Assembly: GCF_053078305.1 (NCBI RefSeq)
Contig: NZ_CP166879.1
Reading direction: 5' to 3' (one strand)
Length of the DNA stretch: 64,000 bases
Positions 51,780-63,652 of this stretch are shown piece by piece. The notes beneath the pieces are model-generated. The model saw nothing but the letters and a program-made list of their open reading frames with translations. It did not search any database and had not been told where the DNA came from. Position 1 is the first letter of the stretch, and each line of letters starts with the position of its first letter. A program made the position numbers and the translations under genes.

Positions 51780-52760
51780 ATGAACGCAATAATATCGCCC
51801 GATTATTACTATGTTCTTACCGTTGCTGGTCAGTCTAATGCTATGGCGTATGGCGAAGGACTGCCATTACCGGACAGGGAAGATGCGCCTCATCCCAGAA
51901 TTAAACAATTAGCGAGATTTGCGCATACGCATCCCGGAGGCCCGTCATGTCACTTTAACGACATTATTCCACTGACTCACTGCCCACACGATGTTCAGGA
52001 TATGCAGGGTTATCACCATCCTCTGGCAACGAATCATCAAACACAGTACGGCACCGTTGGCCAGGCACTGCATATTGCACGGAAATTACTGCCCTTCATT
52101 CCTGATAATGCAGGGGTTCTCATCGTTCCATGTTGTCGTGGCGGCTCGGCTTTTATCGCAGGCAGCGAAGGGACATATTCAGAACGGCACGGAGCCAGCC
52201 ATGATGCTTGTCGTTGGGGAACGGATACTCCGCTATACCAGGATTTAGTCAGCAGAACGCGAGCCGCACTGGCAAAAAATCCGCAGAACAAATTCCTCGG
52301 CGTATGCTGGATGCAAGGCGAATTTGACTTAATGACCAGTGACTACGCGTCACACCCTCAACACTTTAATCATATGGTTGAAGCCTTTCGTAGGGATCTA
52401 AAACAATACCATTCTCAGCTTAATAATATTACTGATGCGCCCTGGTTTTGCGGCGATACCACCTGGTACTGGAAAGAAAATTTCCCTCATGCGTATGAAG
52501 TTATTTATGGCAATTATCAAAATAATGTTTTAGCCAATATTATTTTCGTCGACTTCCAGCAACAAGGTGAAAGAGGACTGACGAACGCGCCTGATGAAGA
52601 CCCGGACGATTTAAGCACGGGATATTACGGTTCAGCGTACCGGTCACCGGAGAACTGGACGACGGCACTGCGAAGCAGTCATTTCAGCACGGCAGCCCGT
52701 CGGGGGATTATTTCTGACAGGTTTGTAGAAGCAATTTTGCAGTTTTGGCGCGAAAGGTGA
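51780..52760 (+). CDS. nanS: 9-O-acetyl-N-acetylneuraminate esterase NanS
   Basis: 326 aa from MNAIISPDYYYVLTVAGQSNAMAYGEGLPLPD…. Confidence 0.8.
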   Translation: MNAIISPDYYYVLTVAGQSNAMAYGEGLPLPDREDAPHPRIKQLARFAHTHPGGPSCHFNDIIPLTHCPHDVQDMQGYHHPLATNHQTQYGTVGQALHIARKLLPFIPDNAGVLIVPCCRGGSAFIAGSEGTYSERHGASHDACRWGTDTPLYQDLVSRTRAALAKNPQNKFLGVCWMQGEFDLMTSDYASHPQHFNHMVEAFRRDLKQYHSQLNNITDAPWFCGDTTWYWKENFPHAYEVIYGNYQNNVLANIIFVDFQQQGERGLTNAPDEDPDDLSTGYYGSAYRSPENWTTALRSSHFSTAARRGIISDRFVEAILQFWRER

Positions 52761-52767
52761 GCGTTCA

Positions 52768-53418
52768 TTAATTTGATTTATTCGCATCCATCAACGCTTT
52801 TAACTCCTCCGGCGTAAACGGTGGTTTGCGTCGGTGCAACATCGCATGGCAATTAGGGCACACAGGAAGTAAATCATTAACTGGATCCAGCAGGTAATCC
52901 TCTTTAATGGCTGAAAGCGGCACCAGGTGATGCATATGGATAAAGCCCTCAGCGATATCGCCATAGATCTTCACCAGATCAACGCCGCATACGTTGCACT
53001 GGCATCCGTGATATTCGACTGCTTTCTCGCGAGCTTTTTTATCGCGTTCATAGCTGTTTACCGTCACCTTTATCGCCGCACCTTCAACGTAGGTCCCCTG
53101 CGACGGCAACTCATCCGGGAACAGAACATCGGCTATGGGAGCCGCAGCGGCTTTATCCTGATGAATATGAAATCCCTGATCTATAAGTAGCTTGACGCAT
53201 TTAGATTTTATTCCGCCGGTGAAATCCGCAGGGGTAAATTGCGTCCCCGTCATCAATGTCGCTGCGATGCCAGCAATCGCCTTCGAGGGGTAACGTCGGC
53301 CATGATATTCAATCTCATACAACCGTGCAGGCTGGAACTGATGAGTTTCTCCCGCATCCCATAAATGAATAGCTTTGATGATATACCGCCGAGGAAGATG
53401 ATCGGGGAGTTTATTCAT
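52768..53418 (-). CDS. HNH-endonuclease-domain protein (possible modification-dependent restriction nuclease)
   Basis: 216 aa with a C-terminal HNH/zinc-finger signature CQCNVCG…HMHHLVP…N…CPNCH. The N-terminal domain is unidentified. Confidence 0.55.
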   Translation of the reverse strand: MNKLPDHLPRRYIIKAIHLWDAGETHQFQPARLYEIEYHGRRYPSKAIAGIAATLMTGTQFTPADFTGGIKSKCVKLLIDQGFHIHQDKAAAAPIADVLFPDELPSQGTYVEGAAIKVTVNSYERDKKAREKAVEYHGCQCNVCGVDLVKIYGDIAEGFIHMHHLVPLSAIKEDYLLDPVNDLLPVCPNCHAMLHRRKPPFTPEELKALMDANKSN

Positions 53419-53497
53419 GGAGAATGTCCTTATACGTTCTCAGAACAAGCAGCAAAAAAACAAATGAGATCAAAGTAATATATCTTCACTTGCAGGC

Positions 53498-54427
53498 TTG
53501 AACAGCAGAAAATTTGCGAGCATGATCGCAATTATTTCACTGCCAGGGATATCAATGGCTTCCAGTAAATCGCTACAGCAGGCAATTGCCAATATAAAAA
53601 TCTGGCATAAGGGTGAACAGCGCGCGCCGCATAAGCCATTGTTATTGCTATACGTATTAGCGGGATACCTGCATGGACATCCGCGCCTTTTCGATTATGG
53701 CTCGGAAATCTACGAACCTCTGCACAGTTTACTGGAACGTTTTGGGCCACAGCGTTCACAGTACCGACCTGATATGCCGTTCTGGCGATTACAAGGCGAC
53801 GGATTCTGGCAATTACACAATGCCGAGCGTTGCTCAACAGCAGGGAGCAGCCGACAACCGCCAGTGAAGGAACTGAACGAATACCACGTTGCAGGCGGTT
53901 TCGATGAACAGCACTACGCCCTGGTAACCGGCAATAAAAAACTCATCAATACTCTGGCGCAACAGATACTCGAAGCGCACTTCACCGAGAGTATTCAGGA
54001 AGAAATTGCTGACGAGCTGGGTTTTGATCTCCAGCAAATCCGTAAACAGCGCGACCCGTTATTTCGCAAAAATGTATTACGCGCTTATAAATACCAGTGC
54101 GCGATATGTGGCTTTAATATGCGCCACGACGACACCACCGTCGCGCTGGAAGCGGCGCATATAAAATGGAAACAGCACGGCGGTCCTTGTGAAATTCCTA
54201 ATGGCCTGGCGCTTTGCGCAATTCACCATAAAGCCTTTGATAAAGGATCGATTGGCCTGGACGAAAATATGCGGGTACTGGTATCAGATGCGGTAAACGG
54301 CGGAGGGATCGTTGAGAGATTATTCTGGGATTTTGACGGGAAAACTATTGCGTTGCCGCAGGTGCGTAAAAATTACCCTTATGAGGGGTTTGTGGAGTGG
54401 CATCGGAAAGAGGTTTTTAGGGGGTGA
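53498..54427 (+). CDS. HNH-endonuclease-domain protein (second copy, divergent)
   Basis: 309 aa with a C-terminal HNH signature YQCAICGF…AAHIKW…NGLALCAIHHKAFDKG. The N-terminal domain is unidentified. Confidence 0.55.
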   Translation: MNSRKFASMIAIISLPGISMASSKSLQQAIANIKIWHKGEQRAPHKPLLLLYVLAGYLHGHPRLFDYGSEIYEPLHSLLERFGPQRSQYRPDMPFWRLQGDGFWQLHNAERCSTAGSSRQPPVKELNEYHVAGGFDEQHYALVTGNKKLINTLAQQILEAHFTESIQEEIADELGFDLQQIRKQRDPLFRKNVLRAYKYQCAICGFNMRHDDTTVALEAAHIKWKQHGGPCEIPNGLALCAIHHKAFDKGSIGLDENMRVLVSDAVNGGGIVERLFWDFDGKTIALPQVRKNYPYEGFVEWHRKEVFRG

Positions 54428-54468
54428 GGTTGATAACTATCGCAGTATGTTCAATATTGCTGACATAA

Positions 54469-54651
54469 TCAGTGCAGGATCTTGCCGCTAGTTTACAACT
54501 CGCCTTCGATAGCGGCGCAAAACGAGTTCTGTTGCCGATATCCTCGGCTATGGATATTCCAACAGTTCCGGCAGAGTTGTTTACCAAGTTTCAGGTAAGT
54601 TTTTACTCAGAACCGGTTGATGCGGTTTATAAGGCGCTGGATGTGAATTAA
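54469..54651 (+). pseudogene. Possible 3' remnant of a Lon-like protease gene
   Basis: Start-less 60-codon frame ending …LQLAFDSGAKRVLLPISSAMDIPTVPAELFTKFQVSFYSEPVDAVYKALDVN*. This resembles the extreme C-terminus of Lon-family protease domains. Confidence 0.3.
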
Positions 54652-55049
54652 CACATTCCTCAGCTTATTTATAAAAGGATTATTCCCATTTGATATAATA
54701 TCAGTGCCAATTTACTTTTTTCAATGGAATATATCTCGGCTAAATAACAATAAAACTTATCGCTAATGGATTAAATAAACAATTTTCTAATTCATTTCAC
54801 CACCTTTGATATAGAAATTGATGGTGTTGTCGCTGCCATTGCTTATGGTGATGATAAAATCCACGTTTCTGGATCGTTGCGTAGAAAATCATCACTACCT
54901 TGATATTTTGATGCGATATGATCATACCGTTCCGTAGTACCAATTTCAATTTCAGGCTAAACCCCAACATTAAAAAAATTAGAGTTATTCACTGATTATA
55001 TTATCAATAATATAATCAGTGAATAACATGGACTATATAATAAATTGCT

Positions 55050-57320
55050 CTAATCATTTCCCTTACGAATATATGGGCCAAAAGCCCAAGAATCATAATA
55101 AGGGTGATGGACTAGTTTTTCATTAAATCGAACACTATAAGTTAATTTTTTTATATTTTTACGTACAGCATTAATACTGGGCAAAGAGGAAAGATAATCT
55201 ATAAACTTATCGATAGTGATTTCCCCTTCGCAACACTCAAACCCATCAATGATATTTTTCGCCATTTTTCCATTTTCATTTGTTTGATATATCACTCCAG
55301 GTATTCGTTGAAAAAAACTAGATAATGCATATTTGTCCGCTACATATGTATCATCCACATGATATTTCCCACCGAGCATAGTTGTAGTAACAATAAGCTT
55401 ATACACACCTTTGGGTTGCCATGTTGATGGTAGTTCGAATTCTTTAATGATCACATCAAGATGATTAAGATAATGTTCAGAAATTCGATTTATTTGTTGA
55501 AAATAAGAACGCATAAATTTATTATTATGATCATGTATTAATGAGCTATCTCCAACGATGTTACACACTTGCTGATAGTACTTACCATAATATATTGGTT
55601 GACCATTTGATTTTAGTTCTGTAAAAATCAAACAATCATCCAGGAGAATCACGCAATCGCACTGATAATTAGCATGAGCATCAATTGGAGAAGCTTTAAT
55701 CCCCGCATCACGAACTTGTTTTATAAATTGTTGCTCATGAAATCGCCCTTTACTTGCTTGAGAAATTTTTTTGGAACCAAATAATGACATTAGAGAGCGA
55801 GTCACTGAGCTATTTGCTATTAATGCAGGCATTAAGCATAAACCGTCCATACAGGGAATAAATGGGCAATCATTAAGATCATGTGATTTTGAATTGAAGG
55901 TAAAATAATCTATCAGTTTTTTTGCTGCATCTGCTGCAATCCCCTTACGTTGAAAGAATGATAACCAACTCTCACGGCTTTTTATGATCAGCCAGCGATC
56001 CAACTGTAGGGGTATAGGTTTTGTCGATGAAAATCTTTTGCTCATTTCTTCTTTAGATAACTCGACTAAACATTGATAAGCGTGCACCCAATTAAATAAT
56101 GATATATTCCCATATTCTTCATGAAGGTCATCAGGAGATATATTTTCCAACTCGCTTAGATGAAATGAGCTAAAAACGCCATCAGAATTTAAGTAAGATG
56201 GCATATGATCCTTTACCCAACTATTTAGATGAAAATGTTTGTTACTAAATTCATGAACTTCGCTATATAGATGTGACGCTCTCATCATTAGTCTATTTCT
56301 TGCAATCTCATAATCTCGGTATAAACAAAAACTATCAACCTCAAGAGAGTAAATGTTATTATCCAATTTTGTAAATACTGCACTACTTAGTCTGAAAAAG
56401 TCTCTTACTCTGCTTAATGAGTCAAAAACATTCCACTCATTAAGGTACCCTCCCATTGAAAGCAAGGTTTGTTTATTCACACAAGAAGTTAGTTTCAATG
56501 GCTCATGAGTCCGTAAATAAGAAAATATTCGTCCGGTGTAATTGGCTACCTCATCAAATGCCCTATCGATAACTCGAAAATATTCGATATCAGGTTCAGC
56601 ATGAATATTAATATTTTCAGAAACGATTACTCTGCTTAATGAGTCAAAAACATTCCACTCATTAAGGTACCCTCCCATTGAAAGCAAGGTTTGTTTATTC
56701 ACACAAGAAGTTAGTTTCAATGGCTCATGAGTCCGTAAATAAGAAAATATTCGTCCGGTGTAATTGGCTACCTCATCAAATGCCCTATCGATAACTCGAA
56801 AATATTCGATATCAGGTTCAGCATGAATATTAATATTTTCAGAAACGATAAATAATGGAAAAATCCTCTTCATTTTTTTAGGATCATTGACCACAACCAA
56901 GGATGATAATGATGATAAAAACATCTCACAAAACATGATGAGATTAAGTATTAATGCATGTGATTTTTTTGTATTTTTACGCCAAATACCAGCACATTTT
57001 GTAGCCGCAAAGAAAGAATTATTTATATCATGCATAATTTTACATTGACTCTCGAACTCAGAAATTAGTTCAATGTTATCAGGAAATGAGTTTACTAGCT
57101 CATTAATACATTTTTTGAATGTATTGTTATACTCAACTTCAGTCTGAACTGAAAATCTATTATAATAGATGGAAGATATTCTCAGCACATCCAAGGCGAT
57201 ATCTATACTAATATCATCTCTTTTTATGTACTCACAAAAAAAAGAACAAAACTGTTTCGGGTCGTTAGCAAGATTACTAATTCTAGTGGTATCATAAACT
57301 TTTTCCATTTTTCCATACAT
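55050..57320 (-). CDS. Large low-GC hypothetical protein (756 aa) with an internal 74-aa perfect tandem duplication
   Basis: Long minus-strand ORF with its own AT-rich upstream region and no recognisable family by eye. A possible PD-(D/E)XK-like motif (CDCVILLDD…TELK) lies in the C-terminal third. Confidence 0.5.
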   Translation of the reverse strand: MYGKMEKVYDTTRISNLANDPKQFCSFFCEYIKRDDISIDIALDVLRISSIYYNRFSVQTEVEYNNTFKKCINELVNSFPDNIELISEFESQCKIMHDINNSFFAATKCAGIWRKNTKKSHALILNLIMFCEMFLSSLSSLVVVNDPKKMKRIFPLFIVSENINIHAEPDIEYFRVIDRAFDEVANYTGRIFSYLRTHEPLKLTSCVNKQTLLSMGGYLNEWNVFDSLSRVIVSENINIHAEPDIEYFRVIDRAFDEVANYTGRIFSYLRTHEPLKLTSCVNKQTLLSMGGYLNEWNVFDSLSRVRDFFRLSSAVFTKLDNNIYSLEVDSFCLYRDYEIARNRLMMRASHLYSEVHEFSNKHFHLNSWVKDHMPSYLNSDGVFSSFHLSELENISPDDLHEEYGNISLFNWVHAYQCLVELSKEEMSKRFSSTKPIPLQLDRWLIIKSRESWLSFFQRKGIAADAAKKLIDYFTFNSKSHDLNDCPFIPCMDGLCLMPALIANSSVTRSLMSLFGSKKISQASKGRFHEQQFIKQVRDAGIKASPIDAHANYQCDCVILLDDCLIFTELKSNGQPIYYGKYYQQVCNIVGDSSLIHDHNNKFMRSYFQQINRISEHYLNHLDVIIKEFELPSTWQPKGVYKLIVTTTMLGGKYHVDDTYVADKYALSSFFQRIPGVIYQTNENGKMAKNIIDGFECCEGEITIDKFIDYLSSLPSINAVRKNIKKLTYSVRFNEKLVHHPYYDSWAFGPYIRKGND
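56405..56849 (-). repeat. Perfect 222-bp direct tandem duplication, in frame, inside the 756-aa ORF
   Basis: The two adjacent 222-bp copies are identical by eye and encode …SENINIHAEPDIEYFRVIDRAF…NEWNVFDSLSRV twice. Confidence 0.85.
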
Positions 57321-57975
57321 CCTATTGTCTAAATTACTATAAAACTAGCCACTTAACTAATAATTATAAATTTCATCTTTTACACCTTGCATTTTTATAA
57401 CCAATGAAATCTACAACAAGCAACTGATGGATAATCCGATATTGGTCGCATTTAATGGCATGGTAGCAAAGTTTTCATCACATACCTCCTTTGCACCAGA
57501 ATAAACGCCAGAGATCTGAAATTGCGAGTACACTACAGAAATTGTACTGCTGGTCCCATCAGCATAAAACCATAGTTACACAGGTAATCATCATTATTCG
57601 CCAAGATAATAAATATTATTCGGTAGAATAGCGTTCTCAGGTGGTCAGTAAAATTGTCTTCAACAAGATGTCTGCGCATCTCGTCTGCTAGCCCTACATA
57701 ACTGCTCTCGACCGAAACTATTTATTGAATGTTCACCAAGGTGGGCGTGGAGACAAAATGACGTCTTTTGATATTAGCTACCTGAGCCACATGGTCAAAA
57801 CGTTCAAGTAGCATAGCGAAACCACCCTGCCCACGTAATGTGGACGATGCAGCTTCCAGCCAGAGCAAACTTGGGACCATCGACTACAAAATGAAGAATA
57901 CTGAACTGCTTTTCTGGCAGGCCTATATACTGCACGGATATGGGTGATTTCAGACACAAAAAAAGCCGCCCTTGA

Positions 57976-57998
57976 GCGACTCGATTTGCATACGGTGT
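57976..57998 (-). repeat. att-site remnant: partial copy of a tRNA-Leu (leuX-like) 3' end
   Basis: The minus strand reads GTTCGAGTCCGGCCTTCGCACCA (T-arm, acceptor stem, CCA) with one base missing relative to leuX as I recall it. There is no upstream tRNA body, so this is not a functional tRNA. Confidence 0.5.
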
Positions 57999-58285
57999 GG
58001 TGCGAAGGCCGGACTCGAACATTTAATTAAACAACTGTATTTAAATAGTTTTTGTATTTAAAAATGAATTGATGCCCCTTTTTGTGCCCCCATTACCAAA
58101 ATAACAACCTAACCTTGTACTAAAAAAGAGATTTTTCAATGTAGGCACTCTGGTTCGGCTACGCTTACCGGAGACGAACCTGAACATAAGAAATCTGAGA
58201 TAACTTCATAGTAATCATCTTTAACACTTTTGACCAATAATATCTATCATAAAGGCAGAGAAATTAATCTCTGCCTTTATTAAGG

Positions 58286-59154
58286 TCACATAAAAAGATT
58301 ATTAATTAGAGTACACTGTTGACATCCATTAATATCTACAGCTTTTAAAAAATCTGTGTTACTAATCAAAACAGCATTACTAACACCTGAAAACTGCAGC
58401 TGTGCATACATACCTAAGATAGATTTTTTTTCGTAATACTGAGATCTTCCTGTATAACTTTCACCAGTATTAGAACTTATAAATCGCCTCGTTCTTTCTT
58501 GTATCAATAAATTATTTTTAAGGAAGCTCAAAATATCTTGCTGCAATTGTTTGTTTTTGTTATGAAAATAACATAACAATTGATCCTCTAAGGTACCAAG
58601 CTGAGTGTTAACGTCATGAAAAATATACCCCCCCATTCACTCCCATTAAACTCAATAATACTTCCATTGGAGAGTTGAGTAGTATCTTCTAAACCTATCT
58701 CATTTTTAATCTCTGTTATTCTGGCATCAATGCCAAGTTCATCAGCATCAAAAAAATATAAAAATCTATATGCAATTTCTATACTGAAGTCATCTGTACC
58801 AGAAAGTTCTTTATACATAGTGACTAACTCAGCCCTTTCACGACTTCTGCCATCACCATTTAGATTATGTATAAAAATTAAGTTCCCGTTATGATAGAAA
58901 CAAACAGAAGGTAGTTTTGGCCCGTTTGGCTGAAAGCCAAGTTTTTTATCTGGAATTCTTACTTGACTTAGTTCTTTTTCAAAGCGTTTATCAAACGGTG
59001 GAGGTAATTGACCAATTTTAAGATCTTGAAGTTGGAATCCATTAACTAAAAGAATTCTGCTAAGAAAAGCGACGTCATGCTGTCCTTCACAAAAGGCAAC
59101 TATGACTCTATTATAAGATACACTCACAATTTTAGCCTCTAATATCAAGATCAA
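58286..59154 (-). pseudogene. Toprim-like (OLD/AriB-like) gene split by a frameshift at a G7 tract
   Basis: ORFs 58588-59154 and 58286-58636 overlap across a C7/G7 homopolymer (58628-58634). The N-terminus has VAFCEGQHD and a later FFDADELG (Glu … DxD), suggestive of a Toprim fold. Fusing the frames gives an approximately 300-aa protein. Confidence 0.45.
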
Positions 59155-61369
59155 TATTTTTTATCAAATAGCCAAATCTTTCGCCATCAGCCCTTTTCAC
59201 TACTACTTTATCGTCAACTTTGCTTAACTGAAATCCAGTAATGCAATCATTATTATAATCATTATTTAAAAAAGCTCTGATACATTCACCCGAATGTGAC
59301 GTAAGGAACACTTGCACATTGAAACGTTCTGCAAGTTGTTGCGTAAATTTAGTAAACTCCAATAGTAAACTATAATGAATCGCAGTTTCAAATTCATCAA
59401 TAAAAAGTACACCGTTACGACATGCAGCAAAAGATAAAGCTATATAAAAGATGCGCTGAATACCCTCTCCATAAGAAGTAAGATCGAAACTTCTGTTAAA
59501 ATCATATGCTGATTCTACGATAAACCTTTTGAGCTCCATGTCTTCAGTAAATCTGACATCTTTTATCGTTGGCTCAATTTTATTCATGAATTCAATAACA
59601 AGGCCGATAGCGGATTGTATATTTAAATCATCTGATTCTGAGTCAGTTACAGACGTTAAATTTGCACCTATACTTTTGTTATAATCAGTGAGCAAATCGT
59701 CTATATCGTAGAAATAAGGGCTTTTAAATGACGATGAACACAAATGCGAAACTTGATCAGCGTTCCTTCTCATACGTTCATGGATAAAAGTATGGACTGT
59801 GTTATTTCTAAATTCTCCATCAATGCTAGACTTTAAGCTATAAGATGCTATATAGTCATCTTGTTTATCAATTGAAGAATCATCATATTTAATCATTTCA
59901 ACAGTAACATTACTATCATCAAATACTCCTGACAAGATTATTTTATCTTGGAAAAGAGCATTTAGCAATGTTGGACTCAAAGTACTGATTTTATTTTTTT
60001 GCCTAATAAGATTAAAATGCGATGAAATATCATTACGCTGCGTCAATAAGTAAATTGCTTCAAGCAATGAAGTTTTTCCAGCATTATTAAAGCCAGCAAT
60101 GATATTAATCTTATTGAAATTATCCAATGAGAAGTTTTTAAAGAATTTATATTTTTTGATATAAATGGATTTAAAATGTTTTTTTACTCCATACTCAAAA
60201 TTAGTTGTATAGTTTCCTCCTTCGATATTTATAGCCATCTGCTTTGGCATTATTTGTGTTAGTTTTTCTTTTGCATCATCTAATAAGCGCAAATCCTCTT
60301 GGTTTATGAGGCTACTATATAGATTTAAATCCTTTAAGGCGTCTTCAAGCTTGCTTAAAGCATTTTTATAGTTTTGCTGATTTACTGAACCGCTCGCAGC
60401 TAATCCTCTTGCAAGGCTACGTTCATCCTCCATTACCTTCAAGGCTTTTTCATTATTGATGAACAAAGCAAGATCTCGTATCTCAAGAGATTTAGTAATT
60501 ATAGGTTCTAGCTCAACGTATTCACCATTACTTTCCTCTTCAATATCATCTTCTAGCTCATTTTTCTCAAGGTATTCATCTGTTTTAGAGATCCACGAAA
60601 AAAGCCTATCAAGATTCACTAAATTTCTAGCATAATAACCGTTATCACTCCAGTCTAACCAAGATTTAATTACAGGCTTTTTGATTATTTCTTCAAAAAT
60701 ACCAAACATACTTGGTTCGAATTGCTCACCATACTCACTTGTTTTATATAAGGAAATTAGATTATAAACTCTAAGCATAGAGCGAAGACGCGTTTTAGAA
60801 ATACCGAGCGAACTAACTAGCTCATCTTCTTTTTCAACATACTCATCTCGAGTTTTGTCTTCATATGGTTTTAAAAAATCATAAAGCAGTTTGGACTGAT
60901 TATATGTTGACCACTTTTTATTACCACTTATATGCTTTAATCCCATTACAATCAGATGTTTTTCAACATCTTGATTATTATGGATTTCGAAAGGAACACT
61001 TCTAAAAATAGATGGATCTAGTTTTCCAATATCAAACCCCTTTTCATATGCTTCTTGCAATGCTTTCAGCGCCGTTACACGACGATTTCCCTCAAGGACT
61101 AAATAATTGTTATCTCCTAAATCCTTTACTTGAATAACATCAACATCTAAGTATCCATTAGATTTAAAACTTGCTATTAGATCTTTGATATTCTCTTGTC
61201 TATTTCCTTCTATAAAAAAGCGAGTCCTACGCTGAATTGTTGGATCTAGCATGTCCTTTTCTGAGACTGGCTTGTGCTGGTCATTGTCAACAAAACGGTA
61301 GTTATTAGGATCTAGAAATAAATTTTTTAAATTTTTGCTAATGCGCGGGCGAATTTGCTCGACATTCAT
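59132..61369 (-). CDS. Fusion of an N-terminal ParB/Srx-like domain with a C-terminal ABC-type (SMC/RecF/OLD-like) ATPase
   Basis: 745 aa. ParB box LVLEGNRRVTALKAL near the N-terminus; Walker A GFNNAGKTS, Walker B LFIDEFE and H-loop LTSHS in the C-terminal half. Low GC. Confidence 0.6.
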   Translation of the reverse strand: MNVEQIRPRISKNLKNLFLDPNNYRFVDNDQHKPVSEKDMLDPTIQRRTRFFIEGNRQENIKDLIASFKSNGYLDVDVIQVKDLGDNNYLVLEGNRRVTALKALQEAYEKGFDIGKLDPSIFRSVPFEIHNNQDVEKHLIVMGLKHISGNKKWSTYNQSKLLYDFLKPYEDKTRDEYVEKEDELVSSLGISKTRLRSMLRVYNLISLYKTSEYGEQFEPSMFGIFEEIIKKPVIKSWLDWSDNGYYARNLVNLDRLFSWISKTDEYLEKNELEDDIEEESNGEYVELEPIITKSLEIRDLALFINNEKALKVMEDERSLARGLAASGSVNQQNYKNALSKLEDALKDLNLYSSLINQEDLRLLDDAKEKLTQIMPKQMAINIEGGNYTTNFEYGVKKHFKSIYIKKYKFFKNFSLDNFNKINIIAGFNNAGKTSLLEAIYLLTQRNDISSHFNLIRQKNKISTLSPTLLNALFQDKIILSGVFDDSNVTVEMIKYDDSSIDKQDDYIASYSLKSSIDGEFRNNTVHTFIHERMRRNADQVSHLCSSSFKSPYFYDIDDLLTDYNKSIGANLTSVTDSESDDLNIQSAIGLVIEFMNKIEPTIKDVRFTEDMELKRFIVESAYDFNRSFDLTSYGEGIQRIFYIALSFAACRNGVLFIDEFETAIHYSLLLEFTKFTQQLAERFNVQVFLTSHSGECIRAFLNNDYNNDCITGFQLSKVDDKVVVKRADGERFGYLIKNIDLDIRG

Positions 61370-61630
61370 ATGTCACCTCAATGGTGTAGGAACTATACAA
61401 TGCAACTTTACTTGATACCTCAGCAATCAACAACTTCATGTTTTTGAAACTAAGCGCGCGCAGCCCCGCACGCCTGCCCGCTTCGCTTAACAGACTGGTT
61501 TTCATGCACCTCATAAATCGTCTCAGAAGCCACCAAACAAGGGTTTTCTCGTCAAAAATGGTGCATAAGACTCATGCGTTTTCATGCGCCATAGACATGC
61601 ACTCATTCGCTCTCATGCCAGCCAGGAAAA

Positions 61631-61662
61631 GGGGATAAAAAATCCCGGTACTGGACCGGGAT
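61631..61662 (-). terminator. Intrinsic terminator after the ogr/delta gene
   Basis: The minus strand reads ATCCCGGTCCAGTACCGGGAT followed by TTTTTAT, 21 nt after the stop. Confidence 0.55.
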
Positions 61663-61682
61663 TACGTGGGCGTTCTTTCTAA

Positions 61683-61964
61683 TCAGACAGGAATCTGCTG
61701 ACGGCTTGACAGTTTTGACGCGGAGCCATAGCGATTAAGTGTTTGCTGTTGTTTTTCCGGGGATTGTGCTTTGTCTGATAGCTGTTCATTGCGTCGGGGT
61801 TTCATGATTATCTTATCCACACTCTCCAGTGCCGTAAATGTGCAGGAACATTCCAGATTCTGGCACTGATACCACGAGCGTTTAACTGACGGAGCTTCAT
61901 AGGCTGCTGTTCTGGCGTGTGCAACTGTACCGCATTCCGGACATTTAAGTGCCATTAATATCAC
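61683..61964 (-). CDS. Ogr/Delta-family zinc-finger late-gene activator
   Basis: 93 aa with a CPECG…HARTA…YQCQNLECSCTF four-cysteine motif, like P2 Ogr and P4 Delta. Confidence 0.8.
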   Translation of the reverse strand: MILMALKCPECGTVAHARTAAYEAPSVKRSWYQCQNLECSCTFTALESVDKIIMKPRRNEQLSDKAQSPEKQQQTLNRYGSASKLSSRQQIPV

Positions 61965-62512
61965 TCCTGTATATCGTTAATGTCATTCAGGCGTTGCTGA
62001 AAACGCAGATGTTGTGCCGGGGTGTAAGAGCCCTGGCAATCACGAATCATCCCGGGGTCAGGCATCAAACCGGATTCATCCAGGATCTCACGATAATCCC
62101 CGGCAATTTCAGGCGGTGTTATTGTCAGCTGGCGAACCAGAGCACTGCGTAATATACGGGACGCAACGTCAACCCCTCCGCGCCCCTTCAGGAACGGAGC
62201 CAGTGCAGATGTCAGGGCTGCCCCATTCGCCTGCATAAAATTGCTGAGAGCGGCTTCTGTGCAGGCTTCCATCAGTAAATGCTGCGAGTAAATGCATTCG
62301 CGCGCAGCACAGTTAATTTGCCATTTCAGCACATCCAGACGTTCCCGCAGTAATTCGAGCTGTCGGGCATAATCTGCTGGTTTTTCTGTGGCAGCGAGGA
62401 GAGATGCTATCTGTTGTTCAACGGCTTTTCGGCTCTCACTATGTCCGGCCCACAGAATACGGGCATTCCGAAAACTGGTAAGTGCCTGGTCAGGCGTGCC
62501 TCGGGCCGTCAT
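61961..62512 (-). CDS. Psu-like (polarity suppression / capsid decoration) protein, tentative
   Basis: 183 aa, helical composition, size close to P4 Psu (about 190 aa). Operon position is between the sid-like and ogr-like genes. Confidence 0.5.
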   Translation of the reverse strand: MTARGTPDQALTSFRNARILWAGHSESRKAVEQQIASLLAATEKPADYARQLELLRERLDVLKWQINCAARECIYSQHLLMEACTEAALSNFMQANGAALTSALAPFLKGRGGVDVASRILRSALVRQLTITPPEIAGDYREILDESGLMPDPGMIRDCQGSYTPAQHLRFQQRLNDINDIQE

Positions 62513-63252
62513 ACTGCTTTCTCCTTCTCAGCAAGTTCCTGACGAACCTTAATTTTATGCATAGCTGCCGGAGAGAGTTGATTACTGAAATCCAGACGCG
62601 CCGCATAATCCGGGGCAATTCCCGCCAGTTTAAACACCGGGTCCTGTTCAGGCATCGCATCGTTAGCCAGAGCCGGTCTGGTGATATGTTTATGAATAAA
62701 GTCTTTCAGCACTGTGTCCGGGTCATTAACTGAATTCACCACACCCACAACGGCACTGGCTTCCCGGCCCATTGTGGATTTAAGCAGGCTCAGCGTCTGA
62801 ATAAGCGCTTTTCCATGCGATTGCATAAAATCTTCCCAGATTTGTTTTGCGCGAATATCCACAAGAATGTTATGCGCGTGGATATACTTTCCGGCTAATT
62901 CCGCAGCTTTCTGCGGCAAAAGTGCATTTTCGCTTTCCTGAGCCGCCAGCAGCTCATCAAAATCCTCAAGCGTTTCTCGTCCCAGCGCAATTTCCGTGCG
63001 CAGTTTTTTCATTTCCTTTGAAACCACGCCCTGACTTTCACGAAACAGCGTGCGCCACTCCTCATTCAGTGTGTTCGTCGTGGCTTCCATCTCAGCGCGA
63101 CGCTGGCGGATTGTCGCAATATTATCCGCTGCCGCTTTCTGCTGACGACGTGCTTCAAGCCATGCGTTTCTGGCTGTGTTCATGGTTTCCAGTGCCCGCT
63201 GCGTTACAGCCGGAAAAGTGGAAAGGTTGTTATTCACTGCGGTGTTGTTCAT
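62509..63252 (-). CDS. Sid-like capsid size-determination protein, tentative
   Basis: 247 aa (P4 Sid is about 244 aa), first gene of the operon, with an AGGAG ribosome-binding site before the ATG at 63252 and TGT-N12-ACA dyads upstream. Confidence 0.5.
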   Translation of the reverse strand: MNNTAVNNNLSTFPAVTQRALETMNTARNAWLEARRQQKAAADNIATIRQRRAEMEATTNTLNEEWRTLFRESQGVVSKEMKKLRTEIALGRETLEDFDELLAAQESENALLPQKAAELAGKYIHAHNILVDIRAKQIWEDFMQSHGKALIQTLSLLKSTMGREASAVVGVVNSVNDPDTVLKDFIHKHITRPALANDAMPEQDPVFKLAGIAPDYAARLDFSNQLSPAAMHKIKVRQELAEKEKAV

Positions 63253-63276
63253 GGCTTCTCCTGTCGGGTTGGTTCG

Positions 63277-63332
63277 TTACGTCAATTGTGTCGTGGCTGA
63301 CACAAGCACACTATCGGTGCTCAGTGTGTGGT
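63277..63332 (-). promoter_or_regulatory. Two TGT-N12-ACA dyads (candidate Ogr/Delta activator sites) upstream of sid
   Basis: TTGTGTCGTGGCTGACACAA (63276-63295) and TGTGTGGTGGCTGGCACA (63315-63332), about 38 bp apart. Confidence 0.45.
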
Positions 63333-63430
63333 GGCTGGCACAACGGGCGCTTGCGGTTATTCAGACGTGGCTATGAAAGCCAGCCAGATAAAAATGCCCT
63401 CAGTTTCAGTCTGCTTTATGTCCCTGATGC

Positions 63431-63619
63431 GGTGGAACAGGTGAAACATGTGTTACAGCTTTGTTTTATAAAGCACTTATATACACTGCACCGGTGGAAC
63501 ATCGCGGGTAACAAGGTGGAACAGCGGATTGGCTGGCGTTACATCTGTTCCACCTCACTATTTCAGAAGGTGGAACAGGTTCAGCCCTGTAAAATACGGT
63601 TGTTCCACCTGTTTCACCT
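63431..63619. repeat. Iteron cluster: about 8 copies of GGTGGAACA/TGTTCCACC in both orientations (P4 crr/ori-like)
   Basis: Perfect copies at 63431, 63493, 63515, 63546 (rc), 63569 and 63601 (rc), plus variants GGTGAAACA (63441) and TGTTTCACC (63611). P4 crr/ori carry TGTTCACC repeats bound by the alpha protein. Confidence 0.6.
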
Positions 63620-63652
63620 GTTACCCTTAATAAATAAGACTCACGCAAAGCC

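Follow-up and report, generated by a model that had tools for sequence, protein, structure and literature searches.

What is the strongly AT-rich gene at 55050-57320, on the minus strand of this stretch, for which no family suggests itself to the eye and which contains two identical copies of one of its own segments? Within the window (the whole 64-kb stretch of E. coli DNA that was analysed), the longest open reading frame at this position starts with ATG and encodes 756 aa including the duplication. Its composition is as AT-rich as the initial annotation described it, with a GC content of 33.1% compared to 46.4% for the window. The real start is probably Met5 at 57308, giving a product of 752 aa, because the PGAP start is found there in other strains, homologues open with M-K-x-Y-D, and the exact protein is known as WP_447309353.1, which is recorded in NCBI on one contig only, 5.94 Mb in size. 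The ancestral, single-copy form (682 or 678 aa) corresponds to WP_000416998.1. A hairpin and T-run terminator with a perfect 20-bp stem (54984-55027, minus strand) is located 23 nt past the stop codon, and since the gene has its own terminator, it is a single-gene unit. Upstream of it are the leuX terminator and a spacer of 690 bp. A promoter scan remained at chance level (20 sites versus 18.9 expected), and no promoter was assigned. An Rfam search over 52000-64000 gave no match.

Around the gene, at leuX, is a defence island in the course of decay. On the nanS side of the island is a gene for an HNH endonuclease (52768-53418, minus strand), followed by one for a phosphorothioated-DNA-binding HNH restriction endonuclease (53498-54427, plus strand; NF045808, E = 5e-132) and by the last 59 codons of the BREX protease BrxL (54472-54648, plus strand; TIGR02653, E = 4e-24). 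What had been called an "HNH pair" does consist of two HNH genes, but the second is the phosphorothioation-dependent enzyme. The two genes are divergent, lie between nanS and the BrxL stub, and are common to strains ETEC6335 and NRZ14408. Homology (85%) to BREX-carrying strains passes the brxL stop codon and extends to about 54934, covering what those strains have as the beginning of their END-nuclease gene. The island is thus a mosaic left after the loss of a BREX locus. In other strains, BREX-1, END nuclease and AbiE are found at the same site. WP_000766444.1, which is found in TW10828 (6293-7642) and E300082 (6299-7648), goes by a different name in each of these genomes, "anti-phage END nuclease" or "phospholipase D-like domain-containing protein", and the notion of three alternative genes downstream of brxL was consequently rejected, as the "PLD-like" and "END nuclease" genes encode this same protein.

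On the opposite side of the gene, the suspected att remnant of a satellite turned out to be 23 nt (57998-58020) copied from the 3′ end of leuX, with a P4-like satellite beyond it. The copy lacks one C relative to the intact tRNA gene of ETEC6335 (TGGTG-CGAAGG). ARAGORN detected no tRNA gene in the 64-kb window, and the intact leuX must therefore lie beyond the satellite. The hotspot of the P4-like satellite carries the candidate system PDC-M38: PDC-M38A is a ParB-AAA ATPase (59132-61369), and its partner, PDC-M38B, is at 58286-59154 (minus strand). The loss of one base from a run of C residues at about 58628 breaks PDC-M38B into two ORFs; the run has seven residues in the window and eight in strain STEC276, whose gene is intact and encodes 280 aa. 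Because of this split, PDC-M38B is a second defence-type gene in the strain with a fresh lesion.

The perfect, in-frame tandem duplication of 222 bp that was first seen by eye is borne out by Tandem Repeats Finder and by direct comparison. The former reports an array at 56405-56849 with a period of 222, 2.0 copies, 100% matches and no indels; in the latter, 56405-56626 is identical to 56627-56848, and the junction shares only 1 nt. A perfect repeat of 222 bp cannot have arisen by chance. As 222 is 74 × 3, residues 158-231 are repeated in frame as residues 232-305. In reading order, copy 1 is 56627-56848 (minus strand), encoding the former, and copy 2 is 56405-56626 (minus strand), identical to copy 1 and encoding the latter. 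A palindrome with a 10-bp stem, CTTAATGAGT-n12-ACTCATTAAG, is located at 56413-56444, within the repeat unit and 8 nt from its left end, and folds as single-stranded DNA with an energy of -7.5 kcal/mol (z = -4.4). Being so near the left breakpoint, the palindrome may have promoted a slip during replication.

The gene is present in 359 of 5,426 complete E. coli genomes (~6.6%). Among the matches listed, each of the 40 copies is 2,049 bp long, 222 less than the 2,271 bp seen here, and comparison across these strains thus finds the single-unit form in every case. A 100-nt probe centred on the junction found no match in the 5,426 complete genomes at E < 1e-30. When relaxed to E < 1e-5, the probe matched 335 genomes, and in all eight of those listed, it was divided into two pieces that mapped to opposite ends of one unit, which means that the probe itself works. 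Removal of one copy in silico yields a 2,049-bp sequence that is 100% identical to that of strain ETEC6335. The duplication is private to one genome. Since the junction is absent from all 5,426 genomes and the exact protein is found on a single contig, either an extremely recent event or an assembly error has taken place, the same two options that were offered at the outset.

That the duplication is an artefact of assembly or consensus calling, and that the strain truly has the ordinary single-copy gene of 678 aa, is rather unlikely. An error of this sort would account for copies that are 100% identical and for a junction and a protein that occur nowhere else, and the neighbouring PDC-M38B has a homopolymer frameshift (C7 versus C8) of a type that sequencing errors can make. 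However, when ~19 kb of the sequence is compared to close relatives, seven of the eight single-base indels are intergenic. This is the pattern expected from natural variation, whereas random sequencing errors would land mostly in coding DNA, and it suggests that the assembly is accurate. The hairpin-forming palindrome beside the breakpoint offers a biological route to the duplication, and short perfect tandem repeats are usually collapsed by assemblers and seldom created by them.

A separate observation concerns the database copies of the gene, very many of which come from contigs of 1-3 kb and encode incomplete proteins. In one Salmonella cluster of 2,989 members, for example, the longest contig is 1.8 kb. 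It seems that the gene or its flanks often break short-read assemblies.

The initial annotation was wrong to call the gene an orphan. A word-based search goes no further than E. coli, Salmonella (at 75% identity) and a handful of other Enterobacterales, the most distant at 41%. By an exhaustive profile search, the protein belongs to a family with 360 cluster representatives (50% identity clusters), 182 of them at E ≤ 1e-10, that spans bacterial phyla; most representatives are 620-700 aa in length and match over their full length. A Foldseek search of AFDB50 likewise returned full-length structural relatives with TM scores of 0.7-0.96 from Bacillus, Paenibacillus, Listeria, Streptococcus, Enterococcus, Legionella, Agrobacterium and a planctomycete, nearly all of which bear the automatic UniProt name "NERD domain-containing protein". 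In the species-representative genomes that were searched, matches were confined to Izhakiella and to one E. coli-like contig that had been assigned to a metagenome-assembled genome of Lachnospiraceae. This contig (SFGN01000178.1, 4,180 bp), which is 99% identical to the E. coli gene, is almost certainly a binning contaminant. A homologue search seeded with a 78-sequence alignment gave only close relatives and nothing new.

Few of the standard models recognize the family. The E. coli protein has no match in Pfam even at E ≤ 10, no significant match to NCBIfam or to PDB sequences, and a best match to PHROGs of only E = 0.8. Of 78 family members, the Pfam NERD model (PF08378) matches seven at E ≤ 1e-3 and 15 at E ≤ 0.1. 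In PADLOC-DB v2, the sole match to the E. coli protein is PDC-M29B, at E = 0.0015 and over 50 residues, and ten distant members of the family yielded either nothing or marginal matches to CARF_PDDEXK/Csx1. No defence family of PADLOC-DB v2, named or candidate, and no NCBIfam model corresponds to this one. A literature search, by accession or by "NERD domain-containing protein", gave nothing relevant and no characterized member.

The prediction of structure, like the search for remote homologues, places the protein in a NERD-type family, with a confident model of a nuclease. An AlphaFold2 model of the single-copy protein, made with the 78-sequence alignment, has a pLDDT of 92.4 and a pTM of 0.91 and is divided into four parts, which are described here, with their catalytic sites, in single-copy (682-aa) numbering and which are all encoded on the minus strand. 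The N-terminal region (residues 1-400; 55899-57320) is all-helical and family-specific and contains the duplication; these ~400 residues have no relatives outside the family, and we propose that it is a sensor or regulatory region. It is followed by a linker (401-449; 55752-55898), the most conserved stretch of the protein, in which a D407-x-x-D410-C-P412 motif precedes the core. The NERD-type PD-(D/E)xK core itself (450-600; 55299-55751) is an α/β domain that includes Q535, R538 and D588 in addition to the catalytic residues E455 (codon 55734-55736), D481 (55656-55658), E494 (55617-55619) and K496 (55611-55613). The C-terminal α/β tail (601-682; 55053-55298) consists of two helices and then a β-hairpin, and has a conserved glycine, G625.

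The core displays the hallmarks of the PD-(D/E)xK superfamily: a restriction-endonuclease-like α/β fold with an acidic residue on strand β2 (D481 in the model) and the (D/E)xK motif on β3 (E494 and K496). Its best structural matches in both the PDB and AFDB are all PD-(D/E)xK, Mrr or NERD nucleases. D481, E494 and K496 are intact in all 111 full-length relatives, so that the nuclease pattern guessed by eye around CDCVILLDDCLIFTELK turned out to be the actual signature of the family. Other residues are kept almost as strictly (of 111: P412 and G451 in 111, D407 in 110, E455 in 108, D588 in 107 and Q535 in 103). By this conservation and the modelled fold, the members of the family are predicted to be active NERD-type nucleases under strong constraint.

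Among known systems, the NERD branch of the PD-(D/E)xK nucleases (PF08378) is the closest in the core, with which it shares the order helix-E, strand-D, strand-ExK and the signature CD-x12-E-x-K-x-x-G. However, the name NERD refers only to a nuclease module of ~150 aa, while the N-terminal ~400 aa and the tail at the C-terminus are found in this family alone. The Mrr-like type IV restriction enzymes and the CARF-linked nucleases Can2 and Card1 differ in that the present family has neither a CARF domain nor one that reads DNA modifications, and its N-terminal region is unrelated to theirs. Upx is a single-protein anti-phage PD-(D/E)xK nuclease of 1,212 aa with two nuclease domains (PDB 9wuf; PMC13099982). 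The layout of D481, E494 and K496 is the same as that of D1161, E1176 and K1178 in Upx, but only the C-terminal core can be aligned, at 11% identity, with no relationship at the sequence level. The hallmarks of Upx, which are a length of ~1,200 aa, nuclease domains at both the N- and C-termini and a middle domain, are not found in the E. coli protein.

In all 13 genomic contexts examined, the gene is solitary. Defence neighbours are clear in E. coli and at four distant loci: one distant relative comes directly after Gabija in Tn7-like cargo, a second adjoins a type I restriction-modification system with Cap4 and PemK, a third adjoins CTD10/DUF2326, and a fourth is found near an HNH gene and a YobI-ATPase. 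Single-gene organization has precedents among systems of this kind: DefenseFinder lists 13 PD-(D/E)xK systems, of which eight consist of one gene (PMC13099982).

The reading favoured here, to which a probability of roughly 55% may be assigned, is that the gene encodes a stand-alone effector of ~680 aa, made from a helical N-terminal region and a NERD PD-(D/E)xK nuclease, and that it most likely acts as a one-gene system against phages or mobile elements. Kept inactive or steered by the helical region until infection is sensed, the nuclease would go on to cleave nucleic acid, whether DNA or RNA, of the invader or of the cell. The endonuclease is presumably Mg2+-dependent. There would thus be a division of labour, in which the fast-evolving helical region senses and regulates and the NERD nuclease executes, within a horizontally spread gene family. 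The fold, the active site, the solitary organization, the foreign base composition and the residence in an island are observed features of the gene; the roles in defence and regulation are inferred. The early suggestion of a defence or abortive-infection role is therefore still plausible, given the defence island and the presence of Gabija, type I restriction-modification and Cap4 near relatives. The gene is a credible candidate for a member of an unnamed family of single-gene defence nucleases. A more far-reaching version, possible though short of probable, is that this is an unnamed single-gene anti-phage family across phyla in which a new, all-helical sensor controls a NERD nuclease, and that the sensor part of the E. 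coli allele has just been duplicated, perhaps with a change in its triggering.

It is unlikely, though by no means far-fetched, that the nuclease serves no immune purpose and is instead a toxin of the selfish or addiction type, or an enzyme with which a mobile element processes DNA, travelling in variable islands. The gene is solitary and AT-rich, and in some genomes, its relative is found beside integrases, IS elements or parts of toxin-antitoxin systems. About half of the 13 contexts have no recognizable defence neighbours, namely those in Izhakiella, Xenorhabdus, Pantoea alhagi and on Bacillus and Priestia plasmids. A few plasmids of the latter two genera encode relatives, and the NERD domain itself was first noted on a Bacillus plasmid. 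However, no conserved neighbour, whether antitoxin, immunity gene or other, was found across the 13 contexts. None of 50,697 phage records encodes a relative, and the strongest associations of the family are with dedicated anti-phage systems.

Even if the gene is a defence effector, its target might be different from that of a DNA nuclease. ZwsA (Zowangsin), a NERD effector of P. aeruginosa that acts as a stand-alone protein, cleaves the genomes of the RNA phages PP7 and MS2 (bioRxiv 10.64898/2026.04.06.716636). It is encoded by a single gene in genomic islands and is an ~80 kDa protein with helical N-terminal domains, the NERD domain and a small C-terminal domain; the reported domains are VHS, DUF647, NERD and S4, and the catalytic residues are E535, D567, E580 and K582 (bioRxiv 10.64898/2026.04.06.716636). 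By this published description, on which the comparison is based, ZwsA resembles the E. coli protein in its stand-alone, multidomain organization, its size and its D-x12-E-x-K spacing, and the latter could by analogy be an RNA endonuclease directed against RNA phages. This is distinctly improbable. Neither VHS, DUF647 nor S4 has a Pfam match in any of the 78 family members at E ≤ 0.1, and no retrieved member fits the residue numbering of ZwsA. The catalytic lysine is K582 of ~700 aa in ZwsA and K496 of 682 here, which places it ~120 aa from the C-terminus in the former (an estimate from the published mass and K582) but 186 aa from it in the latter. These indirect comparisons thus gave no link of the family to ZwsA.

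To return to the favoured reading of a stand-alone nuclease effector, what does the duplication do to such a protein? The nuclease is untouched by it. Conservation is lowest in the duplicated region, which has 1.10 bits per column and drops to 0.59 bits in the loop of residues 161-180, compared to 2.04 for the linker and 1.80 for the nuclease core. As the unit starts in this variable loop, the duplication is topologically equivalent to an insertion of 74 aa at a variable surface loop. In an AlphaFold2 model of the 752-aa protein (pLDDT 85.8), the remaining fold is kept, copy 2 occupies the native position and copy 1 forms an extruded excursion with a pLDDT below 50. Because the alignment puts the homologues on one copy, this placement is weak evidence and says little about stability. 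The effect of the duplication could be anywhere from neutral to function-reducing, or the allele may be altered in function. No sign of an adaptive duplication was found in the one genome and its two identical copies, and it is highly improbable that a doubled sensor part that alters the response or the readiness to fire has been selected for: the duplication is in frame, leaves the nuclease intact and sits in the fast-evolving N-terminal region, but one in three random duplications would be in frame anyway, only one genome has it, two copies without any divergence have not existed long enough for selection to leave a trace, and perfect tandem repeats are unstable.

The duplication is far less important than the family to which it has drawn attention. 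It captures at an early moment how an accessory gene acquires a tandem duplication, and the two-copy allele could at best serve as an existing variant with which to probe the N-terminal region. With a confident model and an obvious active site, the hypothesis of a nuclease effector can be tested by simple point mutants. The E. coli carriers (~6.6% of complete genomes) include O145:H28 EHEC lineages. Should the family prove to be a true defence system, it would bring to the catalogue of such systems a one-gene nuclease effector whose sensor region had not been recognized before.
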